A stretch of DNA of 64,000 nucleotides from Trueperaceae bacterium (lineage in GTDB: Bacteria; Deinococcota; Deinococci; Deinococcales; Trueperaceae): positions 2,464,001 to 2,528,000 of the forward strand of contig OZ243913.1 of assembly GCA_965213705.1 (NCBI GenBank), in the 5' to 3' direction. This document shows, piece after piece, positions 1 to 17,073 of the stretch. Under the pieces are notes generated by a model. That model saw nothing but the letters and a program-made list of their open reading frames with translations, made no database searches and was not told the origin of the DNA. The translations under genes and the position numbers were made by a program. The stretch's first letter is position 1; the number at the start of each line of letters is the position of its first letter.

Positions 1-1194
1 CCCGCCCGCCTTGACCGCGCGGGTTTGGTGGCGGCCGAGGCGGAAGCCGTCCAACTTGCCGAACGGGTGCGCGCCTTGCGCGCCGCCGCCACGCAACGCG
101 CCACCACGTTTCAAGAGGCGCGCCAAACTTTACTGCTCGGCGAGCAGCGCTGGCAACAGTACGCCGAAGCGCAGCGACGGTTCGAAGCGGCCGAGCAGCA
201 GCGCGCCCGGCTGGCCGAACGGCTCGGCGACTTGCTCACCCTGCAAGGTGACGTTGAACGCGACCTGCAGGCGGCGCACCGGGCGTTTACAACGGCTCAG
301 GCCGCTCAGCCCAGCGACCTTGAAACCAAAAAAGCCGCCTGGCAAACAACCAAGGCCGAGGCCGACCGTCTCGAGGCCGCCCTGTCGCCCCTGAGCGAGA
401 GCCAGGCCGGTTACGCCGAAGACTTGGAGCGCGTCAAGGTGTCTTTAGCCCGGCGCGAGGCCGCCCTGGAGCTGGCCCAAGAGGACTTGGCCGGGTTTCC
501 ACCCGGTTTGGAGCGGTTGGACAGGAGCGCCCGAGCCTGCCGCGAACAACTCACCGAAGTCGAAACCGAGCTGACAGCGCTGGGACCCGTCAACCACCGC
601 GCCACTCAAGACGTGCAAGACAGCCGCGCACGTCTCGCCGAACTGCAAGCACAACTTGCCGAAGCCCGGCAAGCCGTCGCCGAGTTAAGAGAAGCCTTGG
701 CGACCCTCGACGCGGAGACGAGTTCGCGCTTGGCGGTGGCGACCGGCGCGTTGCGCCGCAACTTCAAACACTACGTTGGCGAGTTGTTCGGGGCCGAGGC
801 CGAAGCGGATGTAGAGACGCTCTACGAAGAGCAGCGCCCGGTGGGCATCCGCATCGCGCTGCAGCCGCCGGGTAAGCAAACGACGGCCCTGAACTTGCTC
901 TCGGTCGGTGAACGGACGATGGGCGCGCTGGCGTTTTTGTTCTCGCTCATGCAGGGCGACCCCGCGCAACGCCTGCCCCTCGCTGTTTTAGACGAAGTCG
1001 ACGCGCCCCTCGACGAGGCGAACATTCGCCGCTTCTGCGCGTTCTTAGAGCAGCTCGCCAAGCAAGGCACGCAGTTTGTCCTCATCACCCACCAAAAAGC
1101 AACCTTTGAGATTGCCGACGTCCTGTGGGGCGTGACCTCCGACCGGGGGGTCAGCCGGCTGTTTAGCATTCGCCGTGAAGACCCCGTAGCTTAG
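1..1194 (+). CDS. smc: Chromosome segregation protein SMC, C-terminal part (5' end outside window)
   Basis: Long coiled coil, LGPVN motif, signature LLSVGER, Walker B/D-loop VLDEVDAPLD and QFVLITH; frame open from base 1. Confidence 0.92.
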   Translation, partial: PARLDRAGLVAAEAEAVQLAERVRALRAAATQRATTFQEARQTLLLGEQRWQQYAEAQRRFEAAEQQRARLAERLGDLLTLQGDVERDLQAAHRAFTTAQAAQPSDLETKKAAWQTTKAEADRLEAALSPLSESQAGYAEDLERVKVSLARREAALELAQEDLAGFPPGLERLDRSARACREQLTEVETELTALGPVNHRATQDVQDSRARLAELQAQLAEARQAVAELREALATLDAETSSRLAVATGALRRNFKHYVGELFGAEAEADVETLYEEQRPVGIRIALQPPGKQTTALNLLSVGERTMGALAFLFSLMQGDPAQRLPLAVLDEVDAPLDEANIRRFCAFLEQLAKQGTQFVLITHQKATFEIADVLWGVTSDRGVSRLFSIRREDPVA

Positions 1195-1212
1195 GTGATT
1201 TCAACCAGTTAA

Positions 1213-1260
1213 GCAACAAAAAACGCACAAGCTTAACTGTTGTGAAATAAAACACTTGAT
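1213..1260 (-). repeat. ~48-bp AT-rich dispersed repeat, copy A (minus orientation)
   Basis: Reverse complement atcaagtgttttatttcacaacagttaagcttgtgcgttttttgttgc aligns with copies at 2991, 6947 and 16986. Confidence 0.7.
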
Positions 1261-1296
1261 TATCTTAGCTTAGTGTTACTCGCAACAGACGTTGAA

Positions 1297-1359
1297 GCCT
1301 CTTCCCTACCGAAACCCTCGAGCCTTACGAAGGCTTGAGGGTTTCGGTAGGGAAGAGGC
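1297..1359. terminator. 30-bp-stem hairpin between convergent smc and recombinase genes
   Basis: gcctcttccctaccgaaaccctcgagcctt-acg-aaggcttgagggtttcggtagggaagaggc, one mismatch; ends 2 nt from the recombinase stop. Confidence 0.75.
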
Positions 1360-1361
1360 CG

Positions 1362-2414
1362 CTACCAGTCGTCGATGTCCTCGCCGATTTCTTCGGTGCT
1401 GAGTTTGGCGTAGCGGCGGGTGGTCTGGATGCTCGAGTGCCGTAAGTGTGCTGCTACCCGCCCGAGGTCGCGCACCTGCCGGTAGTAGCGCGTGCCGGCG
1501 TAGTGGCGCAGGCCATGAACCGCCGAAGCGGCGTAGTCGTCGCTCATGCCCTGCAATTGGCAGAACGCTTCGAACTTGAGTCGCGCGTGGTTGGTCGTCC
1601 AAGGGAGGACGTAGTCTTTTGTCCGCCGGTTTTTGTAGCGGAGGTCGTCGCCGTAAACCTGGCGGTAACTCTCGAGAATGCCCAGGGTGCGCCCGGTCAA
1701 CCGTACGGCTTTTCGGGTGCCGCCTTTGCCGTGAACCGTCATACGCCGCCGCGCCCAGTCGACGTGCTGCCAGCACAGCGCGGTCATCTCGCCGATGCGC
1801 AGCCCGGCGTGCGCGCCGAGGACGACCATCACGGCGACGGCCCCGGCACCGTCGCGCTCGGCGGCGCTGAGCAACGCTTCTACGGCTTCGTCGCTCCAGG
1901 GTGGGGTTTTGTCCTGAACTTCTTCCTTGTCGGGGGGCGCGTGAACGTCGGTGAAGGGTTTGGCGGTCGTGGCCCCGGCCCACTCGAGCGCGTCGTACAA
2001 CAGTCTGGCCGCCGCCAACTTTACCCCGATGGTACTGGGGCTCAGCGGCTTCGTCTCGTCGTAATCCTGCTCAAAACGTTGGCGACCCTTGCGGATGAGC
2101 ACGTGAGTACGCATGAGTTGGTTGCGGTAGGTCGTCCCAGCGTCGCTGCTCGGGTGCAGCAGGTTCTCGTGGCCGAAGGCTTCCAACACGTCTTGAACCC
2201 CGCGCCGGTAGAGGCGCACCGTACCCTGCGAAACGTTCACGCCCGACTTGGAGCGTTTGTAGAGGTAGGCCTCGCACAAACCCAAGACCTCGTCCTCGTC
2301 GCGCTCGTTCACCGCCTTGAGAATGCGGACGCGCCGTTTCTCGGGCGTGAGCTTGGCCCAGTCCTCGTAGATGTCCAGGGGTGCTAGGCCGGTGTAACGC
2401 TCGAGGTCAGCCAT
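1362..2414 (-). CDS. Tyrosine recombinase/integrase (Xer-like, 350 aa)
   Basis: Catalytic motifs HAGLRIGE (R), GKG (K), HGLRH (HxxR), HLRHSSIQTTRRY (H...Y). Confidence 0.93.
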   Translation of the reverse strand: MADLERYTGLAPLDIYEDWAKLTPEKRRVRILKAVNERDEDEVLGLCEAYLYKRSKSGVNVSQGTVRLYRRGVQDVLEAFGHENLLHPSSDAGTTYRNQLMRTHVLIRKGRQRFEQDYDETKPLSPSTIGVKLAAARLLYDALEWAGATTAKPFTDVHAPPDKEEVQDKTPPWSDEAVEALLSAAERDGAGAVAVMVVLGAHAGLRIGEMTALCWQHVDWARRRMTVHGKGGTRKAVRLTGRTLGILESYRQVYGDDLRYKNRRTKDYVLPWTTNHARLKFEAFCQLQGMSDDYAASAVHGLRHYAGTRYYRQVRDLGRVAAHLRHSSIQTTRRYAKLSTEEIGEDIDDW

Positions 2415-2477
2415 TGGGTTGTAAGTCCTGACAGGTGGAAAGAGGTATCATCATAGCCCATTTTAATCTCTTTTCAA

Positions 2478-2505
2478 ATCGGTGAAAAGAAACATTTTCA
2501 CTTGT
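2478..2505. other. Candidate dif-like recombination site (11-6-11)
   Basis: ATCGGTGAAAA-GAAACA-TTTTCACTTGT; perfect 7-bp inner inverted repeat around a 6-bp spacer, about 64 bp upstream of the recombinase. Confidence 0.55.
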
Positions 2506-2559
2506 TTATACATTTTGAGTTGGTGTGCGGGCTACAGTTCCTAGTTTAAAGTATAAAGT

Positions 2560-2964
2560 GTGATGCAAATCAACCCCTTTCGTGTTTGTCCCAACGGTCA
2601 CTACCCATTGGGGCTACGAATCTCTCATCTATGTTTGAGGCTAGCAGTTGTATTGACCATATCGTCTATTCTGCTTTTACCTTTGACTGAGTATCTCTGC
2701 ATAGGTGTACGGCTTTTTTGTGGGTCGGGGGGCACCGTGTTTAAGCTTTATACATGGTGGCTCTGGCTATCTGGGCCTGTTCTACTTGCTCATGCGATTA
2801 TTGAATCTCGGGTAATTACATCTAGGCTTAAGGAAAATCTAGAACTTGAAACGGGTCAGTGTCTGTGCAGTAACAAACAAAAGGATGGGCTTTTCACAGC
2901 GGCGTATCTGTTGTTTTGGATTTTGTCGCCAATTATTATCTTGCTCTTAAATAGTTTAGTTTAG
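2560..2964 (+). CDS. Hypothetical membrane protein (about 3 TM), AT-rich
   Basis: 134-aa ORF with hydrophobic segments; composition much lower in GC than the flanks. Confidence 0.55.
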   Translation: MMQINPFRVCPNGHYPLGLRISHLCLRLAVVLTISSILLLPLTEYLCIGVRLFCGSGGTVFKLYTWWLWLSGPVLLAHAIIESRVITSRLKENLELETGQCLCSNKQKDGLFTAAYLLFWILSPIIILLLNSLV

Positions 2965-2990
2965 TATCTTAGCTCAGTTTTTTCTCTTCA

Positions 2991-3039
2991 TTCAAGTTAA
3001 AAGATTCACAATAATTACAGGTCGTGAAATTTTTGTTTC
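2991..3039 (+). repeat. ~48-bp dispersed repeat, copy B
   Basis: ttcaagttaaaagattcacaataattacaggtcgtgaaatttttgtttc (1-nt insertion relative to C and D). Confidence 0.65.
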
Positions 3040-3095
3040 TTTTATAAGCTTAGTCGGGGGCTCGAGCCCCCGACCATTCGGGGTACACTGAGAGC

Positions 3096-6836
<3,741 letters not shown>

Positions 6837-6946
6837 ACCCCGGTTCGATTGGGGTTTACAACGGGTCGGTAAACGTTCCTGCCGAAATGGCCCAAGCAAT
6901 TCGAGTTTTCTTGCAGACGCGCCCATACACACTCCTGCACAGAATC

Positions 6947-6994
6947 TGTAGGTGATATATTTCACAATAGCTTAGCGCGTGAACTTTTTCTTTC
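6947..6994 (+). repeat. ~48-bp dispersed repeat, copy C (between convergent genes)
   Basis: tgtaggtgatatatttcacaatagcttagcgcgtgaactttttctttc. Confidence 0.75.
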
Positions 6995-7042
6995 GAGTTC
7001 AAAGTTTTTTGGTCTAATCCGAGTGCAGGCCGACGAGCTATG

Positions 7043-7540
7043 TCAGGGCGTGGGGGACGTTCCGAACTCTGCCAAGAGAGCTTGCACGACCTCGACTATA
7101 AACCTGTCCGCAAGTTTGAGGTCGGCGCTGTTGCCGGCCGTGGTCGAATAAGCCAACGACGCGGCGTTCGTCCCTGCCGGACGAACCACGACGGAAAGCA
7201 GCGTCGGCTCGTCCCGTACTGTTCCCGGGCTCGAGAACCCGAAGCTCAGCGAGCCGTTTCTAAAGTTGAGGCCGAGCCGGTCCGCTCCTACCGCGCCGAC
7301 AACGCGCCCCCGCCCCAGGCGCAGGGCGGTGATAAGCCCCGTGTCACGGTCGGCCGTGTCGAGGGCGAAACCGACCCGTGTGGAAAAGGTCGCGACCCGG
7401 GTCGACGCGACGGCTTGGAGAGTCGCGTCGAACAGCGTGTCGTAGTCGGTGTTGAAAACGTAAGGCTGCAACGGCGGCTGCACCGCCGGGGCACAAGCGC
7501 CCAGCAGAATGAGCAAACTGAGTAGCGCGGTTCGTAACAC
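7043..7540 (-). CDS. Hypothetical lipoprotein
   Basis: GGAGG then GTG at 7540; lipobox LLGAC after a hydrophobic stretch. Confidence 0.75.
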   Translation of the reverse strand: MLRTALLSLLILLGACAPAVQPPLQPYVFNTDYDTLFDATLQAVASTRVATFSTRVGFALDTADRDTGLITALRLGRGRVVGAVGADRLGLNFRNGSLSFGFSSPGTVRDEPTLLSVVVRPAGTNAASLAYSTTAGNSADLKLADRFIVEVVQALLAEFGTSPTP

Positions 7541-7824
7541 GGTAGCCTCCTCGAAACCCACAAAACTGCTCGTGCGGGACGTCGTTAGGCTATTGTACTA
7601 AACGAGAGCGAAAGAGACCTTAAATTAAAAGTTAAAGGGACTCCGGGTTAGAGAGGTTTTCGGGTAAAGAGACCCCGGGGTCGGTCTGGATGCAAACTGT
7701 GCCCAAGCGGTTTTGGGACGGGGTGACTCTTCCGGTCGCCTGGGTCCAGCCGTTTTCAGCTCGAGCGGCCGCTCAGCAACGTGGGGCAACGAACGACGAA
7801 CTTGCCGGGTCAGGGTTTGCCGGG

Positions 7825-8940
7825 TCAGCCGAAGACCGTCAGTCCCGTCGAAGGCGTGTTGCGGTTGCGCATTAGGTCTATTTGGGTCGCCGCCATTTTG
7901 AACGCCTGCATACTCGTCGCCGAGGTGAGGCCGATTTCGTAGTCGATGACGTCGTCGGCGTAGAGCTGGGCGATGTTGTCGTCGAAGGTCTGCATACCGT
8001 CGAGCTTGGAGTCTTTGAGCGCGTCGTAGAGTTCGTGGCTGCGGTCCTCGTCTTTGATAAGGTCCTTGATGCGCATGGTGCCTTTCATGACCTCTTGCGC
8101 GGCGACCCGGCCTTTGCCGCCTTTGCGGGGCAGCAGCCGCTGCGAAACCACCCCGACGAGCGACTCGGCGAACAGCACGCGCGCCGTTTCGCGCTCGTGC
8201 GGCGGGAACAGCTCGATGACGCGGTTCACGGTGCGCACCGTGTCGATGGTGTGCAGGGTGCTGAACACGAGGTGACCCGTTTGCGCCGCCGAGATAGCCG
8301 CCGCGGCGGTGGCGTAGTCGCGAATTTCGCCGATGAGGATGACCTCGGGGTCTTGGCGCATAGCGGCGCGGAGCGCTTCGGAAAATGACGGCGCGTCCGG
8401 CCCGATTTCGCGCTGCACGATAATGGAGCGCTTCGGTTTGTGCAAAAACTCGATGGGGTCTTCGACGGTGATGATCATTTTGGCGTGAACGGCGTTGATT
8501 TCGTCGATGATGCGGGCCAAGGTCGTCGACTTACCCGAACCCGTAGGTCCGGTGACGAGAACGAGGCCTTTTTCTTGGTCGCGGAAGTAGTCGAGCGTTT
8601 CCAAGGGTAAGTTGACCACCTGAAGCTGCGACGAATCCGAGTTGATGACGCGCAAAACCGCGCTGACGCTGCCGCGCTGCCGAAACAAGTTCAAGCGAAA
8701 GCGCGCGACGCCCGCCACGCTGTAGGCCAAGTCGACCTGGTTGTCTTCACGAAACACTTGCTTTTGCTTGTCGTTGCACACGATGTCGACGATGGCGTCG
8801 GTAAATTTGGCGGTAAGGTTGTTCTCGCTCACGGGCACGAGTTTGCCGTTTACGCGAATCATAGGTTGGAGGCCGGCGTGCAGGTGAATGTCGGACGCGC
8901 CGCGTTTGACAAAACCGCCCAGGAGTTCGTCGAAGGTCAT
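7825..8940 (-). CDS. pilT: Type IV pilus retraction ATPase, PilT/PilU family
   Basis: ASDIHL, GPTGSGKSTT, TVEDPIE, RQDPEVILIGEIRD, TGHLVFSTLHT, GMQT; AIRNLIRE motif is divergent (RIKDLIKD), so it could be a PilU-type paralogue. Confidence 0.88.
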   Translation of the reverse strand: MTFDELLGGFVKRGASDIHLHAGLQPMIRVNGKLVPVSENNLTAKFTDAIVDIVCNDKQKQVFREDNQVDLAYSVAGVARFRLNLFRQRGSVSAVLRVINSDSSQLQVVNLPLETLDYFRDQEKGLVLVTGPTGSGKSTTLARIIDEINAVHAKMIITVEDPIEFLHKPKRSIIVQREIGPDAPSFSEALRAAMRQDPEVILIGEIRDYATAAAAISAAQTGHLVFSTLHTIDTVRTVNRVIELFPPHERETARVLFAESLVGVVSQRLLPRKGGKGRVAAQEVMKGTMRIKDLIKDEDRSHELYDALKDSKLDGMQTFDDNIAQLYADDVIDYEIGLTSATSMQAFKMAATQIDLMRNRNTPSTGLTVFG

Positions 8941-9173
8941 AACGCTAAGCTAGCAGGCAAACCTTTACAAAATTCTTACGCGGACTCCGGCACAAGGGCA
9001 AGACCGCGGCGTCCGCCGGGCGCTTGGCTTAGGGGCGGCTCGAGCGGTCCCGACGGTTGGTCATTCGAATAGGTGCAGCGGCCCGCACCGTCACCCAGTC
9101 TAGTCCGCGCCGCCGGCCTCCAAACCGCAACCGTCACACCGGGCGCGGGTTTTCGGCTTGTGTCGTGAAAGGG

Positions 9174-10307
9174 TCAGCGCGAACCGAACGGTCCCCCCAA
9201 CGGTTTCAACGGCGTCGTGGCGTCGGTTTGGCCGTAAGGATAGAGGTCGTAGTTGGTCAGCTCGACGTAGCCCAAGCCAGACGGCGCGCCGCTGGCCGTG
9301 ACCGCACCCTCCCAGTAAACGATGCCGGTGCTGGCCCGCGTGTCCATCTCTTGCCCTAAAAGTCGCGGCGTGATGACGGTTTCAATGCCCAAGCGGGGCA
9401 CGCGCAAACGCCAACCGAGCGGGTAGACAGCGCCCGTTTCGGGGCTTTCCCAGGTCACGCCGGTGGGTTCCAAAACAAAATCTCGAGCTTCTAAGTTGAC
9501 GCTGCGGCCGCTCCGCGTCACGAACGTACCCGCCGCCGTGCTGTACTCGCCACTCGGCTGACGAATGAGGTAGAGCATGAGTTCGGTGTTATCGTCAAAC
9601 TGCAGGCTGAACCAGTCCCAACCGGCGTAACTCGACAAGTCGAAGTCACCCCACTGGTGGTCGTGCCACGCCTGTCCCTGAACCTGGTGGACGGTGCAAA
9701 AGGGGTCGCAGTCGGTGTAGAGTTTACCCTCGGCCTTCATGCGGGTGTAAGAGAGGTAGTAACTCACGCCGCCCGGCCCCATCGACTGAATGCCCGGCGG
9801 GCTGCCGTGCAGGACGACCGGTTTGGTGGGCGTGACGGTGAGTTCCAAGCGCTTGTTGCCGACCGAGGCCGCGACAGCCACGCTGCCGTCCTCGGCGGCT
9901 ACCGCGTACCAGTCGGCAACTTTGACGTAGAGCTTGTCAGCCGAGGTAGTCGCTTTGTAACCCCAGAAGTCTGCGCGTTCGGCTTTCTCGAACGTCTCAG
10001 CGTCGACGTCGGTGATGGCAAAATGCGCGACGTGGCCCTTGTCGATGAGCAGGTCGGCCGGTAAAAAGCCGAACAGCTTGATGCCCGGCGGCGTGTAGGC
10101 CTTGAAAAAAGTCAGTTCGAAGCCGTACTCGTGTCCGGTTTCGTCGCTGAGATGGCCCGTGTAGTACCACCATTCGATGGGCGCGCGGTGGGCGGCCTCG
10201 TCGCGCGGCAACGTTACGGCCTTGACCGGATAAGGCGTCGAATAGATAGAGGGCGCGCAGGCGGCCAACAGCAAACACAGGATGGCGAGGCTTATCCAAC
10301 GGTTCAT
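9174..10307 (-). CDS. Lipocalin-like AttH/CrtC-related lipoprotein
   Basis: Lipobox LAAC; IEWWYYTG, SYYLSYTR, WHDHQW, GWDWFSLQ, YWEG and GYVELT motifs. Confidence 0.85.
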   Translation of the reverse strand: MNRWISLAILCLLLAACAPSIYSTPYPVKAVTLPRDEAAHRAPIEWWYYTGHLSDETGHEYGFELTFFKAYTPPGIKLFGFLPADLLIDKGHVAHFAITDVDAETFEKAERADFWGYKATTSADKLYVKVADWYAVAAEDGSVAVAASVGNKRLELTVTPTKPVVLHGSPPGIQSMGPGGVSYYLSYTRMKAEGKLYTDCDPFCTVHQVQGQAWHDHQWGDFDLSSYAGWDWFSLQFDDNTELMLYLIRQPSGEYSTAAGTFVTRSGRSVNLEARDFVLEPTGVTWESPETGAVYPLGWRLRVPRLGIETVITPRLLGQEMDTRASTGIVYWEGAVTASGAPSGLGYVELTNYDLYPYGQTDATTPLKPLGGPFGSR

Positions 10308-10369
10308 CTATAAACCATAAACCACTGCCCCCGCCCCAGACTGAGAGGGTGCTCGCGTTTGGGACCTTT

Positions 10370-10405
10370 GCCGAACAGACTGCCAACCAGACTGCCGAAC
10401 AGACT
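10370..10405 (+). repeat. 12-bp tandem repeat x3 in a divergent intergenic region
   Basis: gccgaacagact gccaaccagact gccgaacagact, bracketed by gagagggt/accctctc inverted repeat. Confidence 0.8.
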
Positions 10406-10479
10406 ACCGACCCTCTCGGCGACGGCGGGTAGACTGGGACGCGTGCCGGCCCCAACGAGGCGGCGCTTTAGGAGAAAGT

Positions 10480-11373
10480 ATGAACCGAATCCTACCTGTC
10501 GTTCTGGTCGTGAGCTTGTTGCTCGTGAGCGGGTTGTGGCTGTCGCGGCGCGCCGTTGCCGAGGCGGCGACAGAACAAGCTACCGAGCCGGTCGAAACGG
10601 TCTTAGGTGCCGAACTGCCCGAAGGCTTTACCCTTACGCCTTTTTTGAGCGAGGAACCGGTGCGCAGCTTCGAGGCGGCGGACGAGGTTTTGGAGCCCGG
10701 CGTCGACTACCAGGCCATCATCGTCACCAACGACGGACCCCTGCGTATTGACCTGTACGAGGACGAGGCCCCGACGACGGTCAACAACTTTGTGTTTTTG
10801 ACGCGCAACCATTACTACGACGGTGTCGTCTTTCACCGGGTGCTGGAAGACTTTATGGCTCAAACCGGCGACCCGACCGGCACCGGCACCGGCGGGCCGG
10901 GTTATCAGTTCGCCAACGAAACCTCACCCGACTTAAACCATGACCAGCGCGGCGTCGTGTCGATGGCGAACGCCGGGCCGGACACGAACGGCTCACAGTT
11001 TTTTATCACCTTCGGCCCCACCCCCCAACTCGACGGCGGTTACAACGTTTTCGGGCAAGTCGTCGAAGGCGACGCGGTGCTTGACGACATTACCCGCATC
11101 GACCCGCAAACCCCGAGCGCCGTCGTCGCGCCGGGTGACACACTCGAAACGCTTTCGGAGCAGGGCATCACGCTCGCCGGCGACGCTTCGCAAACCGTGG
11201 AGGCTTACCTCGCCGACAAACTCGGCGCAGAGACGACCCTCGGCCAAACCTTCGACATCGACGGGTACAAGGCGGTGGCGGGCCGGCGCGGCAACGACGA
11301 CGCTTACGGCTTTTTTCCGCAACCCGACGTCATGGAGCACGTCTACATCATTCAAAAACCGAAAAGCGAGTAG
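10480..11373 (+). CDS. Cyclophilin-type peptidyl-prolyl isomerase, exported
   Basis: Signal/TM N-terminus; [32 protein letters not shown]. Confidence 0.93.
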
Positions 11374-11382
11374 GAGAGACTA

Positions 11383-11943
11383 ATGGCTTATACACCCGAC
11401 GGTTACACCCAAACCGAACCCCTGTCCGACGAGCGCAAGACAAAGTTTTCCAAAGCGGAGGACGTTTTAGAGCAGGGCAAGGATTACCAGGCCGTCATCG
11501 AAACGAGCAAGGGCCGCGTGGTCGTCGACCTGTTTCAGGACGAGGCCCCGATGACGGTCAACAACTTTGTGTTTTTGGCGCGCAACCGTTACTACGACAG
11601 CGTCGTCTTTCACCGCGTTTTGGACGGCTTTATGGCTCAGGGCGGCGACCCGACCGGGTCCGGGCGCGGTGGGCCGGGTTACACCTTCGGCGACGAGACG
11701 AGCAACGGCAAACGCCACGACTCCAAAGGCGTGTTGTCGATGGCGAACGCCGGGCCGGGGACGAACGGCTCGCAGTTTTTCATCACTTTTACAGCGACAC
11801 CGCACTTGAACGGCAAACACACCGTCTTCGGCAAGGTCGTCGAGGGCGAAGAGGTCTTGGACAAACTCACCCGCATCGACCCGTCACGGCCCGGTGGGGC
11901 GACGCCGGACAAGATGGAGCAGGTTTATATCGTCGAGAAGTAG
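11383..11943 (+). CDS. Cyclophilin-type peptidyl-prolyl isomerase, cytoplasmic
   Basis: [40 protein letters not shown]. Confidence 0.95.
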
Positions 11944-12029
11944 GGGCGAGTGAGGGAGTGGGAGGTGGGGAGTAAAGGCAAAAGCTTTTACTCCTTTTCT
12001 CTCTGCTCCCTTACTTCTGTCACTACGTC

Positions 12030-12701
12030 TCAAACAGCAACGACGACTTGAAAAGAAGGGTCGTGCTCGAGGTCGGGCGTCCCAGACACGACGAAATTCG
12101 CCCGTTCCCACGGCCGCTGCTCGGCTAAAAAAGGCAATTCTGCGGCCATCCACTCGTCCCAGAACACAACGGCCCCCGCGTCACCACCATCGCGAGCAAT
12201 GCCTCTAATTCTGGCTTGCTCTAGGTCCGCCTGCACCCACACCACTGTATCAACTATGTGCATCAGTTCGTGGCGGGCCGCGCCGACGCCTTCTAAAACC
12301 AGCAGCGAACAGTTTGGGGGTACTTTAATCGCGCCTTTCCGGTCTCGCTCTAGCCACGCCGGAGGTCGGTACTGCACGGCCTGACCGCGGCGGGCGGGCT
12401 CGAGCACTTCCTCGAGCAGCAACTCCGTCCAGTCGAAAAAGGAGTGATGCCAGGCAACGTCGTCGGTGTGGACCACGGCAGAGCCGGGAACGGCGCGGTG
12501 AAGCGTTCTAGCAAGGGTCGTCTTCCCGCTCGCGCTGCGCCCGTCGACGGCGACGACTTGTGTTTTATCCGGCGCGTGGGGAAGCTCTCGAAGTGATTGA
12601 ACGAACGTTTCTAGGGGCTCGACTTTCCACGGCCCGAAGTAAGGCTCTTCAGGAGGGAGAGAAAAAGCTCTCGACTCTCCCCTACTCCCTCTCTCCCCCA
12701 C
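12030..12701 (-). CDS. P-loop nucleoside/uridine kinase-like protein (start uncertain)
   Basis: VAVDGRSASGKTT, VHTDD, LVLEGVG; the N-terminal codons lie in a purine-rich repeat. Confidence 0.75.
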   Translation of the reverse strand: MGERGSRGESRAFSLPPEEPYFGPWKVEPLETFVQSLRELPHAPDKTQVVAVDGRSASGKTTLARTLHRAVPGSAVVHTDDVAWHHSFFDWTELLLEEVLEPARRGQAVQYRPPAWLERDRKGAIKVPPNCSLLVLEGVGAARHELMHIVDTVVWVQADLEQARIRGIARDGGDAGAVVFWDEWMAAELPFLAEQRPWERANFVVSGTPDLEHDPSFQVVVAV

Positions 12702-12705
12702 GCCC

Positions 12706-14709
12706 CTACTCTCCCGAATTTTCCACCGCCACAGGCTCGACTTTTAAACGGCGCTCTTTCGCGTTCATACGCAAGTGCTCGACGAACGCCTGGGCCGGCA
12801 CCCCGTTCTGGTTCGGCTCCTGGCGACTCCGGAACGAGACCGAGCCCGCCTCGGCTTCCTGGTCGCCGACGATGGCGGTGTAGGGGATTTTGTAAATCTC
12901 GGCGTCGCGGACTTTGGCGTTCATGCGCTCGCTGCGCGCGTCGACCGTGGCGCGTAGTCCGGCGTGCTCGAGGCTTTCTTTAAGGCTGTCCGCATAAGAA
13001 ACGTGCCGGTCGGCGATGGGTACGATGCGCACCTGCTCGGGCGCGAGCCACAGCGGAAAGTCCCCGGCGAAGTGCTCAATCATCACGCCCATAAAGCGCT
13101 CGGTCGAGCCGGTCACGGCGCGGTGAATCACCACCGGCGTGTGCCGCTCGCCGTCCTCGCCGACGTACTCGCAGCCCAAGCGCTCGGGTTGGATGAAGTC
13201 GACCTGGAGGGTCGAGAGTTGCCACTCGCGCCCGAGCACGTCCTGGGCCATAAAGTCGGCCTTGGGACCGTAAAAGGCGGCCTCGCCGTAGGCTTCGGTG
13301 TAGGGCACACCCTCGGCTTGAAGCGCGTCGCGCAGCGCTTGGGTGGCCTTGGTCCACTTCGCGTCGTCGTCGACGTACTTGCCCGCCTCGCCGCGCAAAC
13401 TGAGTTGGACCGAGTAGGCGTTGAAGGCGTAGGTATCGAGCACCTCGCGGATGAGTTTGAGGGCGAGGGCGAACTCCGCTTGAATTTGTTCTTCGGTGCA
13501 GAAGATGTGGCAGTCGTCCTGGGTGAGCGAGCGCACCCGCGTCAAGCCGTTCAACTCGCCCGACTTTTCGTAGCGGTAGAGCGTCGCGAATTCCGCGTAG
13601 CGCAGCGGCAACTCGCGGTACGAGTGGAGCCGGGTGTTGTAGAGCGTCATGTGACTGGGGCAGTTCATCGGTTTGAGGCGCAGCCGCACGCCGTCGTCAT
13701 CCATCGGGGGAAACATCGACTCGGCGTAGTTGTCCAGGTGGCCTGACTTTTCATACAAACTTTCTTTGACGAGGTGGCCGGTCCAGACGTGTTCGTAGCC
13801 GTAGCGGGTCTGCACCTCGCGGACGAAGCGTTCCATCTCAAAGCGGACGCGCTCGCCGCGCGGCAAAAACAGCGGGATGCCCGAGCCTACGTCGTCCGAA
13901 AAAGCGAACAGGTCGAGTTCGCGGCCGAGTTTGCGGTGGTCGCGTTTTTTGGCTTCCTCGAGCTGCCACAGGTAGTGCTCTAAGTCTTCCTTGCTGCGAA
14001 AAGCCACGCCGTAGATGCGTTGGAGCTGCGGCCGCGTCTCGTCGCCGCGCCAGTACGCGCCGGCCACGCTCATGAGTTTGAAGTGCGGCGGGATGTCACC
14101 GGTATTCGGCAGGTGCGGGCCGCGGCAGAGGTCGGTAAACCCCTCTCCCCCACCCTGTTCATAACCACCCTGTTCATAAAAGGTGATGGCCTCGCCTTCC
14201 GGCAAACCCTCGATGAGTTCGACCTTGTAGGGGTCGCCCTGTTTTTGGTAGCGCTCCAGGGCCTCAGCACGCGGTAACTCGAACTTGCGCAGCGGCAGCT
14301 TCGCCTTGAGGATGGCGCGCATCGTTTCTTCCAGGGCCGCCAGGTCCTCGGGCGTGAGGCTTTCGGGCAGGTCGAAGTCGTAGTAGAAGCCGTTTTCGAT
14401 GACCGGGCCGACGCCCATCTTCACGTCGCCGCGTTTGAAACCCTTGGCGACGAAGTGCTCCACGACCGCCTGGGCCATGACGTGGGCCAGGGTGTGCCGC
14501 GCGAGCTGCAGGCTCGCCTCGTCGCGCCCGGTGAGAATCGACACCTCCGCGCCCTCGGGCAGCTCGGTGAACAGGTCGGTGAGCCGGCCGTTCACCGTCG
14601 CGCCAAGGGCGGCCTTGGCAAGACCCGGTCCGACGGCGGCGGCCACGTCTTTGGGGGTAGCGGGTTCGTTCAGGGTCAGCTGTTTGCCGTCAGGAAGCGT
14701 GACGAGCAT
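12706..14709 (-). CDS. thrS: Threonine--tRNA ligase
   Basis: TGS domain, RHTLAHV, DLCRGPH, DHRKLG, KPMNCP, GLTRVR, AFYGPK, IHRA, anticodon-binding domain. Confidence 0.98.
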   Translation of the reverse strand: MLVTLPDGKQLTLNEPATPKDVAAAVGPGLAKAALGATVNGRLTDLFTELPEGAEVSILTGRDEASLQLARHTLAHVMAQAVVEHFVAKGFKRGDVKMGVGPVIENGFYYDFDLPESLTPEDLAALEETMRAILKAKLPLRKFELPRAEALERYQKQGDPYKVELIEGLPEGEAITFYEQGGYEQGGGEGFTDLCRGPHLPNTGDIPPHFKLMSVAGAYWRGDETRPQLQRIYGVAFRSKEDLEHYLWQLEEAKKRDHRKLGRELDLFAFSDDVGSGIPLFLPRGERVRFEMERFVREVQTRYGYEHVWTGHLVKESLYEKSGHLDNYAESMFPPMDDDGVRLRLKPMNCPSHMTLYNTRLHSYRELPLRYAEFATLYRYEKSGELNGLTRVRSLTQDDCHIFCTEEQIQAEFALALKLIREVLDTYAFNAYSVQLSLRGEAGKYVDDDAKWTKATQALRDALQAEGVPYTEAYGEAAFYGPKADFMAQDVLGREWQLSTLQVDFIQPERLGCEYVGEDGERHTPVVIHRAVTGSTERFMGVMIEHFAGDFPLWLAPEQVRIVPIADRHVSYADSLKESLEHAGLRATVDARSERMNAKVRDAEIYKIPYTAIVGDQEAEAGSVSFRSRQEPNQNGVPAQAFVEHLRMNAKERRLKVEPVAVENSGE

Positions 14710-15078
14710 AGAAACACCTCGGTTCTTTGGTAAATACAGACTGTAAACACGAATTGTTGAGTGCGGATTGCTTGCAATTTTGGCGTTAAAACGCTTGTGT
14801 CGGTCGGCCTCGGCTCAGCACGTTCGCGTCGACCAAAGGTCCAGGTAAGCGTGTAGAGGCGCGCGGCCGTTTACAAGTAAGCCGTCCATAAGTAACCAAA
14901 GTGTAGCACGGGCGTCGGGGGCTGTATATCTCTCACACGGCTCACTGACCGGGTATCTCACAGTCCCTATCCACGCGCTCTGTTACGATTGGGCCATAAA
15001 CCGGTTCGGCCCGTAAAACGGTACAGCAACCTACCGGCTGCACACTCGCCGAAAAGCCGAGACCCGAAGGAGTACGAC

Positions 15079-15516
15079 GTGAGCGGGGGAAACATCTTGC
15101 TGGTAGAGGACAACCAAGACGACGTCGACCTGACCCTGCGCGCGCTCGCCAAGGCGGCCATCGACATCGACGTGGTGCGCGACGGCGGCGAGGCGCTGGA
15201 CTACCTGTTGCGCCGGGCGGCTTTTGAAGACGTCGACAAACCGCTGCCCAACCTCGTGCTGCTCGACATCAACTTGCCCAAGTTGAGCGGGCTGGAGGTG
15301 TTGAGAGAGTTGCGCCGCAACGAGCCGACGCGGCTTTTGCCGGTGGTGATGTTGACTACGTCCAAGCAAGAGCAAGACATCTTGGAGAGCTATGCGGGCG
15401 GGGCCAACAGCTACGTCCGCAAACCCGTGAGCTACCCGGAGTTCGTGGCGGCGGTCAACCAGCTCGGGGTTTACTGGTTGGGTTTGAACCAAGCACCGTG
15501 GAAGACCGCGTCGTAA
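15079..15516 (+). CDS. Stand-alone response regulator receiver (Rcp1/CheY-like)
   Basis: AAGGAG then GTG; ILLVEDN, LLDINLP, MLTTS, GANSYVRKP. Confidence 0.9.
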   Translation: MSGGNILLVEDNQDDVDLTLRALAKAAIDIDVVRDGGEALDYLLRRAAFEDVDKPLPNLVLLDINLPKLSGLEVLRELRRNEPTRLLPVVMLTTSKQEQDILESYAGGANSYVRKPVSYPEFVAAVNQLGVYWLGLNQAPWKTAS

Positions 15517-16688
15517 ACCGAACCTTAAAACTCTTGTTGGTGGAGGACTCCGCCGACGACGCCGAACTCGTCCAGTTGGCGCTGGTTCGCAGCGGCTACC
15601 GGCTCGAGACCTGTCAATTCAGCGATTTGGGCGCTGTGAGGAGGGCTTTGCGCGACCAGGTCTGGGACGTCGTCGTGACCGACCACGCCATGCCGGGCCT
15701 GAGTTCCGGCGACGTTATCGACCTTGTGCCCGCCGGCACGCCTTGTATCGTCGTATCGGGAGCCGTCGGCGAGGAGACGGCGGTGAGCTTGCTCCAGCGC
15801 GGGGCGGTCGACTACGTCAACAAAAACAACCTGCGCAGGCTTGGCGGCGCGGTCAGCCGGGCGCTGAGCGAAACCCAAAACTTGCAAGCCCGCCGCCGCG
15901 CCGAGGCCGAACTGCGCACCGCGCACGCGGACTTAGAAAAGCGTGTGCAGTTGCGCACGGCCGAGTTGCAGCTCGCCAACGCCCGGTTGCGCGAAGAGAT
16001 GGACGAGCGGCGCAAGGCCGAAACAGAACTCAGCAACGCGCGCCTTTTTTTGGTGCGGCTACGCGAACAAGAACGCTTAAACTTGTCCAGAGAAATACAC
16101 GACGGCGTCGTCCAGGACTTGATAGGTGTCGGCTACGCGGTGGCCGACACCGAGCGCAAAGTCGTCGCGGGCCAAACCCTGAGCGACACCGTCACCCTTT
16201 TGCGGCGGCACCGCGCCGACATTTTAGCGTCGGTCCGCCGCTTGCGCACCCTCGTCAAAGGTTTGCGCCCACCCGGCCTACACGAGTTCGGTTTGGAACA
16301 CGCCTTGCAGGTGTTTGTGGGTTCCCTGGACACGTCCGGACGACCCGCTTGTCACCTCACCGTGACCGAAGACGCGGTCGACTTGTCCGAAGCGGTGAGT
16401 CAAGCGTTTTTTCGAGTAGCCCAAGAAGCGGTTCGAAACGCCTTGCGCCACGCCCGAGCGACCACCGTCGACATCGCAGTGTCGGTTCGCGACGACGGGG
16501 CGTACCTGGTAGTCAGCGACGACGGCTCAGGTTTCAGGGTGCCGGAACGGCTCGGTAGCCTGGCTGCGGACGAACATTTCGGTTTGGTCGGCATGGACGA
16601 ACACGCTCAACTCGTCGGCGGGCAACTGTACCTGGAGTCCGCGCCCGGCCACGGCACGCGCGTGACGGTGGTCGTCCCGCTGGACTGA
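15498..16688 (+). CDS. Hybrid receiver + HisKA_3 (NarX-type) sensor kinase
   Basis: N-terminal REC (LLVEDS, TDHAMP); REIHDGVVQ, QEAVRNALRHA, DDGSGF, FGLVGM. Confidence 0.9.
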   Translation: MEDRVVNRTLKLLLVEDSADDAELVQLALVRSGYRLETCQFSDLGAVRRALRDQVWDVVVTDHAMPGLSSGDVIDLVPAGTPCIVVSGAVGEETAVSLLQRGAVDYVNKNNLRRLGGAVSRALSETQNLQARRRAEAELRTAHADLEKRVQLRTAELQLANARLREEMDERRKAETELSNARLFLVRLREQERLNLSREIHDGVVQDLIGVGYAVADTERKVVAGQTLSDTVTLLRRHRADILASVRRLRTLVKGLRPPGLHEFGLEHALQVFVGSLDTSGRPACHLTVTEDAVDLSEAVSQAFFRVAQEAVRNALRHARATTVDIAVSVRDDGAYLVVSDDGSGFRVPERLGSLAADEHFGLVGMDEHAQLVGGQLYLESAPGHGTRVTVVVPLD

Positions 16689-16985
16689 CGCGCCCGAGCA
16701 CTTGACGCCGGCAAAAGAGTTTGCGCGTCCCCAACATTCCTGCAGATGCGGCCGAAACTGGCAAGGTTTACACAAGACGCTAAACCTCGTCACGAGTTTT
16801 CGGTCTTTTTCGCTCGAGCTGTAAGGGTTACAGGGTGCTGCTTGAGCCGGGGACGTACCGGCTCGTTGCACACCTCGACCGTGGTTTAAGCCTGACACGA
16901 GTGGGGCAAAGAACAGGCGACCGGGTCAAGATTACGCGGCCGCCGCCGTTGGTCTCTCCTCGTTGGCAGTCAAATTGATAGATTT

Positions 16986-17033
16986 CTCAAGTGAGTGTTT
17001 TCACAATAACTATGCGCGTGAAATGTTTGTTCC
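16986..17033 (+). repeat. ~48-bp dispersed repeat, copy D
   Basis: ctcaagtgagtgttttcacaataactatgcgcgtgaaatgtttgttcc. Confidence 0.75.
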
Positions 17034-17073
17034 GTTTGTAGCTCTTCGGCCGGTTGCAGGGTTAGGATAAAGC

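Follow-up and report, generated by a model that had tools for sequence, protein, structure and literature searches.

The window analysed here, a stretch of 64,000 bases from the chromosome of a Trueperaceae bacterium (genome G000, a single contig of 4,246,949 bases; window at G000:C1:2,464,001-2,528,000), contains four copies of a repeat that recurs around the replication terminus. The comparison of genomes shows a conserved, bipartite and strictly polar terminus element that is found order-wide and is centred on a dif-like site varying between lineages. An earlier note, made from the window alone, had proposed an asymmetric, multipartite protein-binding site that is polar about dif, and this holds genome-wide and order-wide. 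It is almost certain that the element is a polar protein-binding site of the terminus. Its purpose and its reader are less firm: the reading developed below, to which a probability of roughly 0.4 is assigned as a whole, is that the element would be a one-way replication-fork trap bound by two dimers of Rex, a repressor that senses NADH. Throughout, G-numbers label genomes, f1 to f4 label families and g27 a genus of the comparison, and genomes with and without the repeat are called positive and negative.

The element copies and the centre of the array in G000 are listed below by window position, with scores from a matrix trained on other genomes (ORF, open reading frame).

1210 to 1260, minus strand: element copy A, the innermost copy on the left side, in the gap where smc and xer both end; score 35.0.
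2991 to 3042, plus strand: element copy B, the innermost right copy, with 28-bp spacing, 55 bases upstream of dnaE; score 59.0.
6947 to 6997, plus strand: element copy C, between convergent dnaE and a lipoprotein-like ORF; score 37.9.
16986 to 17036, plus strand: element copy D; score 45.1.
G000:C1 2,434,558, 2,447,091 and 2,461,731 (all minus strand), 2,603,278 and 2,822,828 (both plus strand): five copies beyond the window, from the genome-wide matrix scan.
2478 to 2505, no strand: dif-like site with 11-bp arms and a 6-bp spacer, at which the element strand switches, 64 bases upstream of the tyrosine recombinase gene.
1362 to 2414, minus strand: Xer-like tyrosine recombinase of 350 amino acids (PF00589, E 1.8e-20; below the cut-offs of the XerC, XerD and XerS models).

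A matrix built from the four window copies and run over both strands of the genome returned five further copies above a clear score gap. The same nine copies were recovered by the matrix trained on 119 sites of other genomes only, with scores of 33-59 and the best background match at 21. Four of them are minus-strand copies left of the dif-like palindrome and five are plus-strand copies right of it, and all nine are polar. A degenerate pattern gave three matches in the window versus none in 100 shuffles, missing copy B, whose spacer is one base longer than the fixed pattern. The places and strands of the four copies are those of the earlier note, with the frame now set at 51 bp, and its observations that A and C lie between convergent genes and that the strand switches across 2478-2505 were reproduced. 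It had reported no more copies in the window, and neither matrix finds a fifth. Scattered copies in random orientation had been named as the outcome that would speak against it; all five additional copies instead lie near the terminus, each on the strand that was predicted. Its consensus was approximately right, but single copies deviate: A ends with GTGCG, B starts with AAGTTA and C starts with GTAGGTGA. Since dnaA is located at 441,831, the switch lies 171.6 degrees away from it. The cumulative GC skew, which was to be compared with the copies, peaks at 2,544,697, but the skew is weak.

The consensus of the element spans about 51 bp and reads YAAGTGAAW-nn-WTTCACGAT-WWWnCnnGnT-CGTGAAW-TTTT-TRTY. 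Site I is a strong palindrome, AAGTGAA-W4-TTCACGAT, with fixed spacing, its first half being more degenerate in G000. Site II follows 27-28 bp after site I and combines one good half (TCGTGAA) with a conserved half that does not match (TT-R-T-Y); in this fourth half-site, position 41 is never T, and position 42 is T in 86% of the copies. The only variable spacing is the junction of the two sites, which differs by one base. Site I always faces dif and site II points outward. An RNA hairpin or intrinsic terminator was ruled out as the identity of the element: at all 10 stem positions the paired fraction equals that expected from independence (65 and 119 sites), folding energies are mostly as in shuffles, and no Rfam family matched at the gathering score. 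For these reasons the repeat is regarded as a binding site for protein on DNA. The fixed spacing inside each site together with the one-base slack between them suggests that each copy likely binds two protein dimers.

A strict pattern, scanned over 58 of the 64 parts of the GTDB contigs, matched at least 130 loci. Of these, 116 are named Deinococcus, Deinococcaceae/Deinococcales, Meiothermus or Calidithermus, three are further bacterial records with typical copies and 11 are others; D. radiodurans R1 does not appear by name among these strict matches. In 19 of 19 named contigs with strict matches on both strands, all minus copies lie left of all plus copies. When two mismatches were allowed, the 28-bp form was present among the matches listed in 40/40 genomes of f4, 33/41 of f2 (one of them by a chance match) and 2/8 of f3, with reversed-pattern controls near zero in these families. 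Family f1 shows the 28-bp form only at control level and carries a 27-bp form in 22/80 genomes (21/79 without the unpublished G167), with a few single chance-like matches. Polarity was tabulated for the 22 genomes with a located xer or dif, leaving out reverse matches that overlap true copies and a two-mismatch match at G078:818,612. All 118 tabulated copies face away from dif; 80 are within 20 kb of it and 110 within 50 kb, and the farthest is 356 kb away. There are 3-9 copies per genome, and the inner gap around dif measures 1.5-45 kb. In 16 repeat-bearing chromosomes for which both positions and the length were available, the strand switch lies 170.7-192.0 degrees from dnaA. No p-value is given for the polarity because related genomes are not independent. 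A plus-strand matrix match left of dif in G148 (score 28.8) has no core, lies in an AT-rich island and was treated as background. The tightest inner pair consists of two nearly identical copies flanking xer and dif at G021:C1:1,343,763 and 1,345,299, 1.5 kb apart; the pair in G000 is 1.8 kb apart.

Diverged variants keep the polarity in G141 and G026, and in G059 and G034 on the single side where copies were seen. Site I has lineage-specific variants at G059:C1:1,566,902 and 1,582,150, at G141:C78:33,626 and 49,584, at G122:C1:1,393,134 and 1,411,921 and at G026:C1:1,130,442-1,184,323, and these natural pairs could help to pinpoint which residues give the reader its specificity. The repeat was not found in G090, G108, G139, G037 (loose pattern), G012, G004, G128 and G144, where the assemblies of G128, G144 and G037 are fragmented and three of the eight genomes were searched minus 24,000 bases. 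A lone palindrome resembling site I is located beside dnaA in the negative genome G090 (C1:1,742). Secondary replicons of closed genomes have their own xer and show no copy among the matches listed or at 30 xer loci. Plasmids yielded no copy with a single BLAST query, which is a weak test, and viral contigs none with the exact pattern.

Thermus thermophilus HB8 appears to carry the element. Of the 14 listed matches of the CRP-family regulator SdrP in this strain, four have the site I signature: 898,965 and 899,588 on the minus strand and 931,166 and 932,531 on the plus strand (PMC8465061, Table 2). That paper interprets the four as promoter sites, and its main text does not use the words 'terminus' or 'replication'. 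The 11 strict matches outside the group, seven of them in Bacillales, look like tandem operators. Bacillota records with such tandem operator-like sites at the same 28-bp spacing are L035, L062, L063, L092, L118, L135, L157 and L147. The seven tandem sites in Bacillales may be Rex sites.

At the centre of the array, the residues R206, K230, H300, R303 and Y335 of the recombinase are invariant among 11 relatives and H326 nearly so, and the relatives are located opposite dnaA. Almost all lineages examined have an 11-6-11 site upstream of the recombinase gene; G037 shows no clear site of this kind there, and G136 has a candidate site without an xer match. We read these sites as the putative dif sites of each lineage. 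Their arms are TTTTCACCGAT in G000, TTGTCTGGGTA in G021, TTAGGTGGGTA in G024, TTATCGTAGGG in G019, TTATCATCG.. in four f2 genomes, TTAACGGGAAT in G030, TTATGCGAAAT in G035 and TTTCGCGCAT in genus g27, where an XerC/D-like enzyme stands at the switch in place of the usual Xer family. At least eight lineages differ in their arms, whereas the core of the repeat is constant. The recombinase at 1362-2414 and the dif-like site upstream of it likely form a single-enzyme dimer-resolution system; the 11-6-11 site precedes a single xer gene with a complete catalytic set, located opposite the origin.

Several further observations concern the Xer genes. In three genomes (G030:C1:1,204,207; G026:C1:1,150,286; G085:C1:1,138,689), which have two different Xer families, the coding sequence of the terminus xer contains one symmetric GTGAA-N4-TTCAC palindrome, possibly a non-polar centre site of the array; its core in G085 is identical to the highest-ranking SdrP match in T. 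thermophilus HB8 (917,761). More xer-like genes or remnants are present at G000:C1 1,276,276, 1,242,873 and 3,382,451, and a weak repeat-like sequence (score 20) at 1,242,655 adjoins an xer remnant. In the negative genomes G090, G108 and G139, this Xer family has no match on the main chromosome at E 1e-40 and was found only on secondary replicons. A separate Xer-family gene is frequent on the secondary replicons of Deinococcus-like genomes, and each replicon perhaps has a dimer-resolution module to itself. G001 and G000 differ in the DNA upstream of dif. Between dif and copy B, at 2560-2964 of the window, a low-GC ORF of 134 amino acids without a Pfam or NCBIfam match was possibly acquired at dif, or is no gene.

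The gene context of the copies does not explain their orientation. In home-made gene calls, 57 of 59 copies with known context are intergenic and all four gene arrangements are seen, with an enrichment of gaps between convergent genes (24/57 copies versus 76/338 gaps). The strand of the element follows dif and not the adjacent gene, and the neighbours vary between lineages. Two replication and chromosome genes adjoin the copies in the window:

1 to 1194, plus strand: 3' part of smc (TIGR02168, E 6e-70); copy A and the copy at 2,461,731 lie on either side of the complete gene.
3096 to 6836, plus strand: dnaE (DNA polymerase III alpha), flanked by copies B and C.

A long GC-rich hairpin at 1297-1359, between xer and copy A, is likely the terminator of the convergent smc and xer genes.

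Fork arrest is slightly favoured as the job of the element, by analogy with the RTP system of Bacillus subtilis. There, the strong B site blocks a fork that encounters it first, while a fork coming from the A site passes (PMC10331603, PMC13220808). Since site I faces dif and RTP blocks at its strong site, the orientation of the element would be that of a trap, assuming that match to the consensus reflects affinity. A fork on its way to dif would run into the weak site II before site I and pass, whereas an overshooting fork would encounter the strong site I first and come to a halt. Forks would thereby fuse in the interval of 1.5-45 kb that contains dif, the place of action of Xer and FtsK. With Rex as the reader, the trap would open at high NADH, which would detach the protein from the DNA. 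Four-fold sites were tested for strand bias in three genomes (G030, G148 and G000) whose dif is 70-113 kb from the point opposite dnaA. The TA bias flips at the inner pair and not opposite dnaA, at 1,197, 1,714 and 2,471 kb, respectively. In G030, the GC bias also flips at the inner pair (1,216 kb), with values of 0.119, 0.114 and -0.068 to the left, between and to the right. Over the whole genome of G000, the best change point of the four-fold skew is at 2.13 Mb for GC and 2.47 Mb for AT. These flips fit forks meeting at dif and are not specific to a trap.

Rex, which the earlier note did not consider among the possible readers, is the best-supported candidate and fits better than SdrP/DdrI; it is probably the protein that reads the element. 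The Rex operator is TTGTGAA-W4-TTCACAA with an AT-rich spacer and tolerant outer bases (PMC2883068), and the core of site I is the same GTGAA-W4-TTCAC with an AT-rich spacer. A T precedes TCAC in 95-99% of copies, a base that is not needed in the selected SdrP consensus. The gene is present in all 83 genomes searched, and the protein of G000 is a close relative of Thermus aquaticus Rex (E 1.3e-78). In f2, the distance of the Rex DNA-binding domain from the consensus is 0.07 in 32 positives versus 0.31 in six negatives. At near-invariant positions of this domain, all eight negatives have 3-14 changes, while 38 of 40 positives have 0-1, and the six longest Rex branches are those of repeat negatives and variants. 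The held-out f1 set behaves alike, with a mean of 4.8 changes in 18 negatives versus 1.2 in 12 positives for the DNA-binding domain and 4.1 versus 3.4 for the NAD domain. Rex identity to the reference falls from 80 to 59% in negatives, and that of the adjacent SPOR gene is 61 and 60% (alignment lengths differ). No acceleration comparable to that of Rex was found in neighbouring genes, DdrI, other CRP paralogs, DnaA or ScpB. Position T63 of Rex (gene at G000:C1:7,539) is changed in 14/26 negatives versus 3/52 positives and is a candidate terminus-specific contact.

When G000 was scanned with site I alone, the nine terminus copies ranked 1-7, 9 and 12, and in seven canonical f2 genomes 3-7 of the 5-9 exact core matches are terminus copies. 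No large scattered Rex regulon is therefore apparent. NADH is known to release Rex in this protein family (PMC8063818), and the same would be expected here because the Rex of positives retains the NAD-binding motif as well as R16 and D188. A redeployment of Rex across the order as a replication terminator, with two dimers per polar site and a grip set by the NADH/NAD+ ratio, is proposed tentatively.

A number of observations weigh against the trap or against Rex. Binding and fork arrest are both deduced from sequence, and the orientation of the strong and weak sites would agree with RTP by chance in one case out of two. In G122, one diverged plus-strand copy left of xer is a possible exception to the polarity. 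The GC skew is noisy in G000 and G148 with no flip at the inner pair, only three genomes were compared, and many bacteria with no known trap also show a skew flip at dif. The genes tus and rtp are described as adjoining a Ter site and regulating themselves; rex is located elsewhere, at G000:7,539 and far from the terminus, and no palindrome was found in the 260 bases upstream of it in 23 genomes, although the promoter could lie at a greater distance. The Rex signal stems from few independent lineages, about four in the main set, and 11 of the 18 held-out negatives belong to one clade. Moreover, the near-invariant positions were defined on the positives themselves, and several positive or negative labels rest on a single match or a draft assembly. 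The NAD domain of f2 Rex is also accelerated in the Deinococcus-like negatives (0.39 versus 0.13 in positives), and the identity of the upstream TPR gene drops from 78.5 to 69.5% with one reference (two negatives) or from 70 to 69% with the other. Five held-out negatives, G092, G066, G110, G171 and G143, have a near-intact Rex domain with one change, and G004 has a short branch. Conversely, the positives G013 and G132 have diverged domains with five and three changes, and in G059 site I is changed while the Rex domain is not. Finally, SdrP protects the TTHA0953 site, one of the Thermus copies, in vitro (PMC8465061).

One alternative is a fork trap read by SdrP/DdrI of the CRP family or by a dedicated protein and not by Rex, which we consider unlikely. 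The spacing of GTGA-N6-TCAC is that of CRP sites as well, DdrI requires DNA of 26 bp and has been linked to segregation and plasmid maintenance (PMC11253593), and the SdrP/DdrI clade was found in every family sampled. Furthermore, a global regulator would not relax on the loss of these sites only, and the site I variants of G059, G141, G122, G026 and G034 would suit a dedicated partner. The SdrP consensus AWTGTRA, however, wants a T before GTGA in both halves, while the left half of site I has A in 83-94% of copies and the right half has, opposite, G in 74-97% or A in 3-23%. At the position where SdrP favours T, the copies carry C or A; altering this base raised the dissociation constant 25-fold, and the TTHA0954 site shows little SdrP protection (PMC8465061). 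The recognition helix of DdrI is identical in G122 despite the changed site I, and the decay of Rex would be left unexplained. In a quick tree of CRP paralogs (67 rows, 69 loci, of 97 matches), no clade separates positives from negatives. Two rounds of clustering of terminus-region ORFs revealed no conserved DNA-binding gene near the sites, based on home-made gene calls from which small genes may escape. The MarR-type gene beside the HB8 sites was rejected as a candidate, its apparent counterpart in G085 having no intact frame while the sites persist. Ordinary CRP-type operators, an option of the earlier note, are unlikely as the purpose of the element in view of the strand and context data and the site I ranks, even though SdrP still binds one site in vitro.

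As to the purpose, the main rival to a fork trap is the control of another translocase. Polar sites that stop or unload SMC-ScpAB coming from the origin, or FtsK, would organise the terminus domain, possibly again with Rex as the reader; this appears rather less plausible than fork arrest. The same place and polarity fit such a role, XerD unloads SMC at the B. subtilis terminus (PMC12322038, PMC13220808), and smc lies in the terminus region of nine genomes. The reported absence of polarized FtsK orienting polar sequences (KOPS) in Deinococcus radiodurans (PMC13342612) leaves room for another orienting signal. However, the weak end would be the first that SMC and FtsK encounter on their way to dif, the 3-9 long sites here contrast with KOPS-type signals, which are short and distributed over the whole chromosome, and ScpB is present in 36/37 genomes regardless of the repeat, for which it was also dismissed as a co-occurring partner. 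It is very improbable that the copies are ordinary operators of Rex or CRP, or intrinsic terminators, belonging to genes that happen to be near the terminus. Several copies precede a gene by 30-120 bases (smc, dnaE, smpB), the outside matches resemble tandem operators, and a gene ends at the dif-proximal side of 39/57 copies versus 174/338 gaps. Nevertheless, this explanation is largely refuted by the polarity; the strand following dif, the changing neighbours and the many copies between convergent genes do not suit operators, which for Rex would be placed at the promoters of repressed genes, and the absent covariation and Rfam family do not suit terminators. Extra binding sites for the Xer recombinase, whether accessory, as the earlier note had offered, or like the XerD-binding sites (XDS) of B. 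subtilis, have a marginally smaller chance still. Copies bracket the xer gene, and the dif arm (TTTTCAC...) resembles a half-site of the repeat in G000 and G001 only, where the reader of the repeat might touch dif too. Xer is an unlikely reader because the dif arms change between lineages and the repeat does not; in addition, the enzyme is replaced in g27, G012 has xer and dif without the repeat, and the secondary replicons have xer but show no copy among the matches listed or at 30 xer loci.

The polar terminus element of Deinococcota is apparently undescribed so far. Consistent with a statement of the earlier note, no polar terminus element or fork trap of this group was found in the full-text literature, with subscription papers and supplements outside the search. 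Some copies may reportedly be listed already as Rex operators by Ravcheev 2012 or in RegPrecise. A 2026 paper describes dif and polar KOPS as not identifiable in D. radiodurans (PMC13342612). According to reviews, fork traps are known in gammaproteobacteria that carry Tus and in a few species of Bacillus only, and most bacteria are suggested to lack them (PMC10331603, PMC13220808). Candidate dif sites and a conserved polar terminus element are now available for the order, including the genetically tractable Thermus, and natural gain and loss pairs of the element are open to comparison. This makes it testable why fork traps evolve repeatedly and whether a metabolic regulator doubles as a protein of chromosome architecture. 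A trap gated by Rex would tie the end of chromosome replication to respiration via NADH/NAD+, which would be categorically new, and the best-studied Rex structures, those from Thermus, would be structures of a terminator protein with overlooked natural sites.

Compared with known systems, the centre of the array resembles the single-recombinase systems XerS/difSL and XerH/difH, with one xer gene and an 11-6-11 site directly upstream of it opposite the origin. It differs in a recombinase family that falls below the XerS cut-off and in arms that vary between lineages, and the likeness concerns the centre and not the repeat. With Rex operators, the element shares the core, and Rex conservation tracks the element; its outer bases (AAGTGAA, TTCACGAT) are different, a second fixed sub-site follows, and the copies are placed by dif, often between convergent genes, and not at respiratory-gene promoters. 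Like XDS and matS, it is sequence-specific and confined to the terminus region, but it is not built from dif arms. The palindrome matS is non-polar. KOPS are polar motifs of 8 bp along both replichores, in contrast to an element of 51 bp with 110/118 copies within 50 kb of dif. In Tus-Ter of Escherichia coli, opposed groups of polar sites likewise bracket dif, but Tus is a monomer on a single site, whereas the element is bipartite with palindromic halves. RTP (PF02334), Tus (PF05472) and MatP (PF06303) were each found in 0/5 genomes, with positive controls in B. subtilis for RTP and in E. coli for the other two. The element would likely be a third, independent fork trap beside Tus-Ter and RTP-Ter. 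With RTP-Ter it has in common few nested polar sites around dif (nine in B. subtilis, 3-9 here), a strong and a weak sub-site with the strong one towards the overshooting fork (here by sequence match, not affinity) and a winged-helix dimer as the reader, which is only proposed for the element. The B. subtilis site measures 32 bp in all, compared with about 51 bp and 27-28 bp between the sub-sites here; the candidate reader gene lies outside the terminus region, and the trap itself is predicted from DNA sequence. As a presumed trap, the element functions like RTP-Ter but stands outside the RTP-Ter, Tus-Ter, matS, KOPS and Xer-site families.

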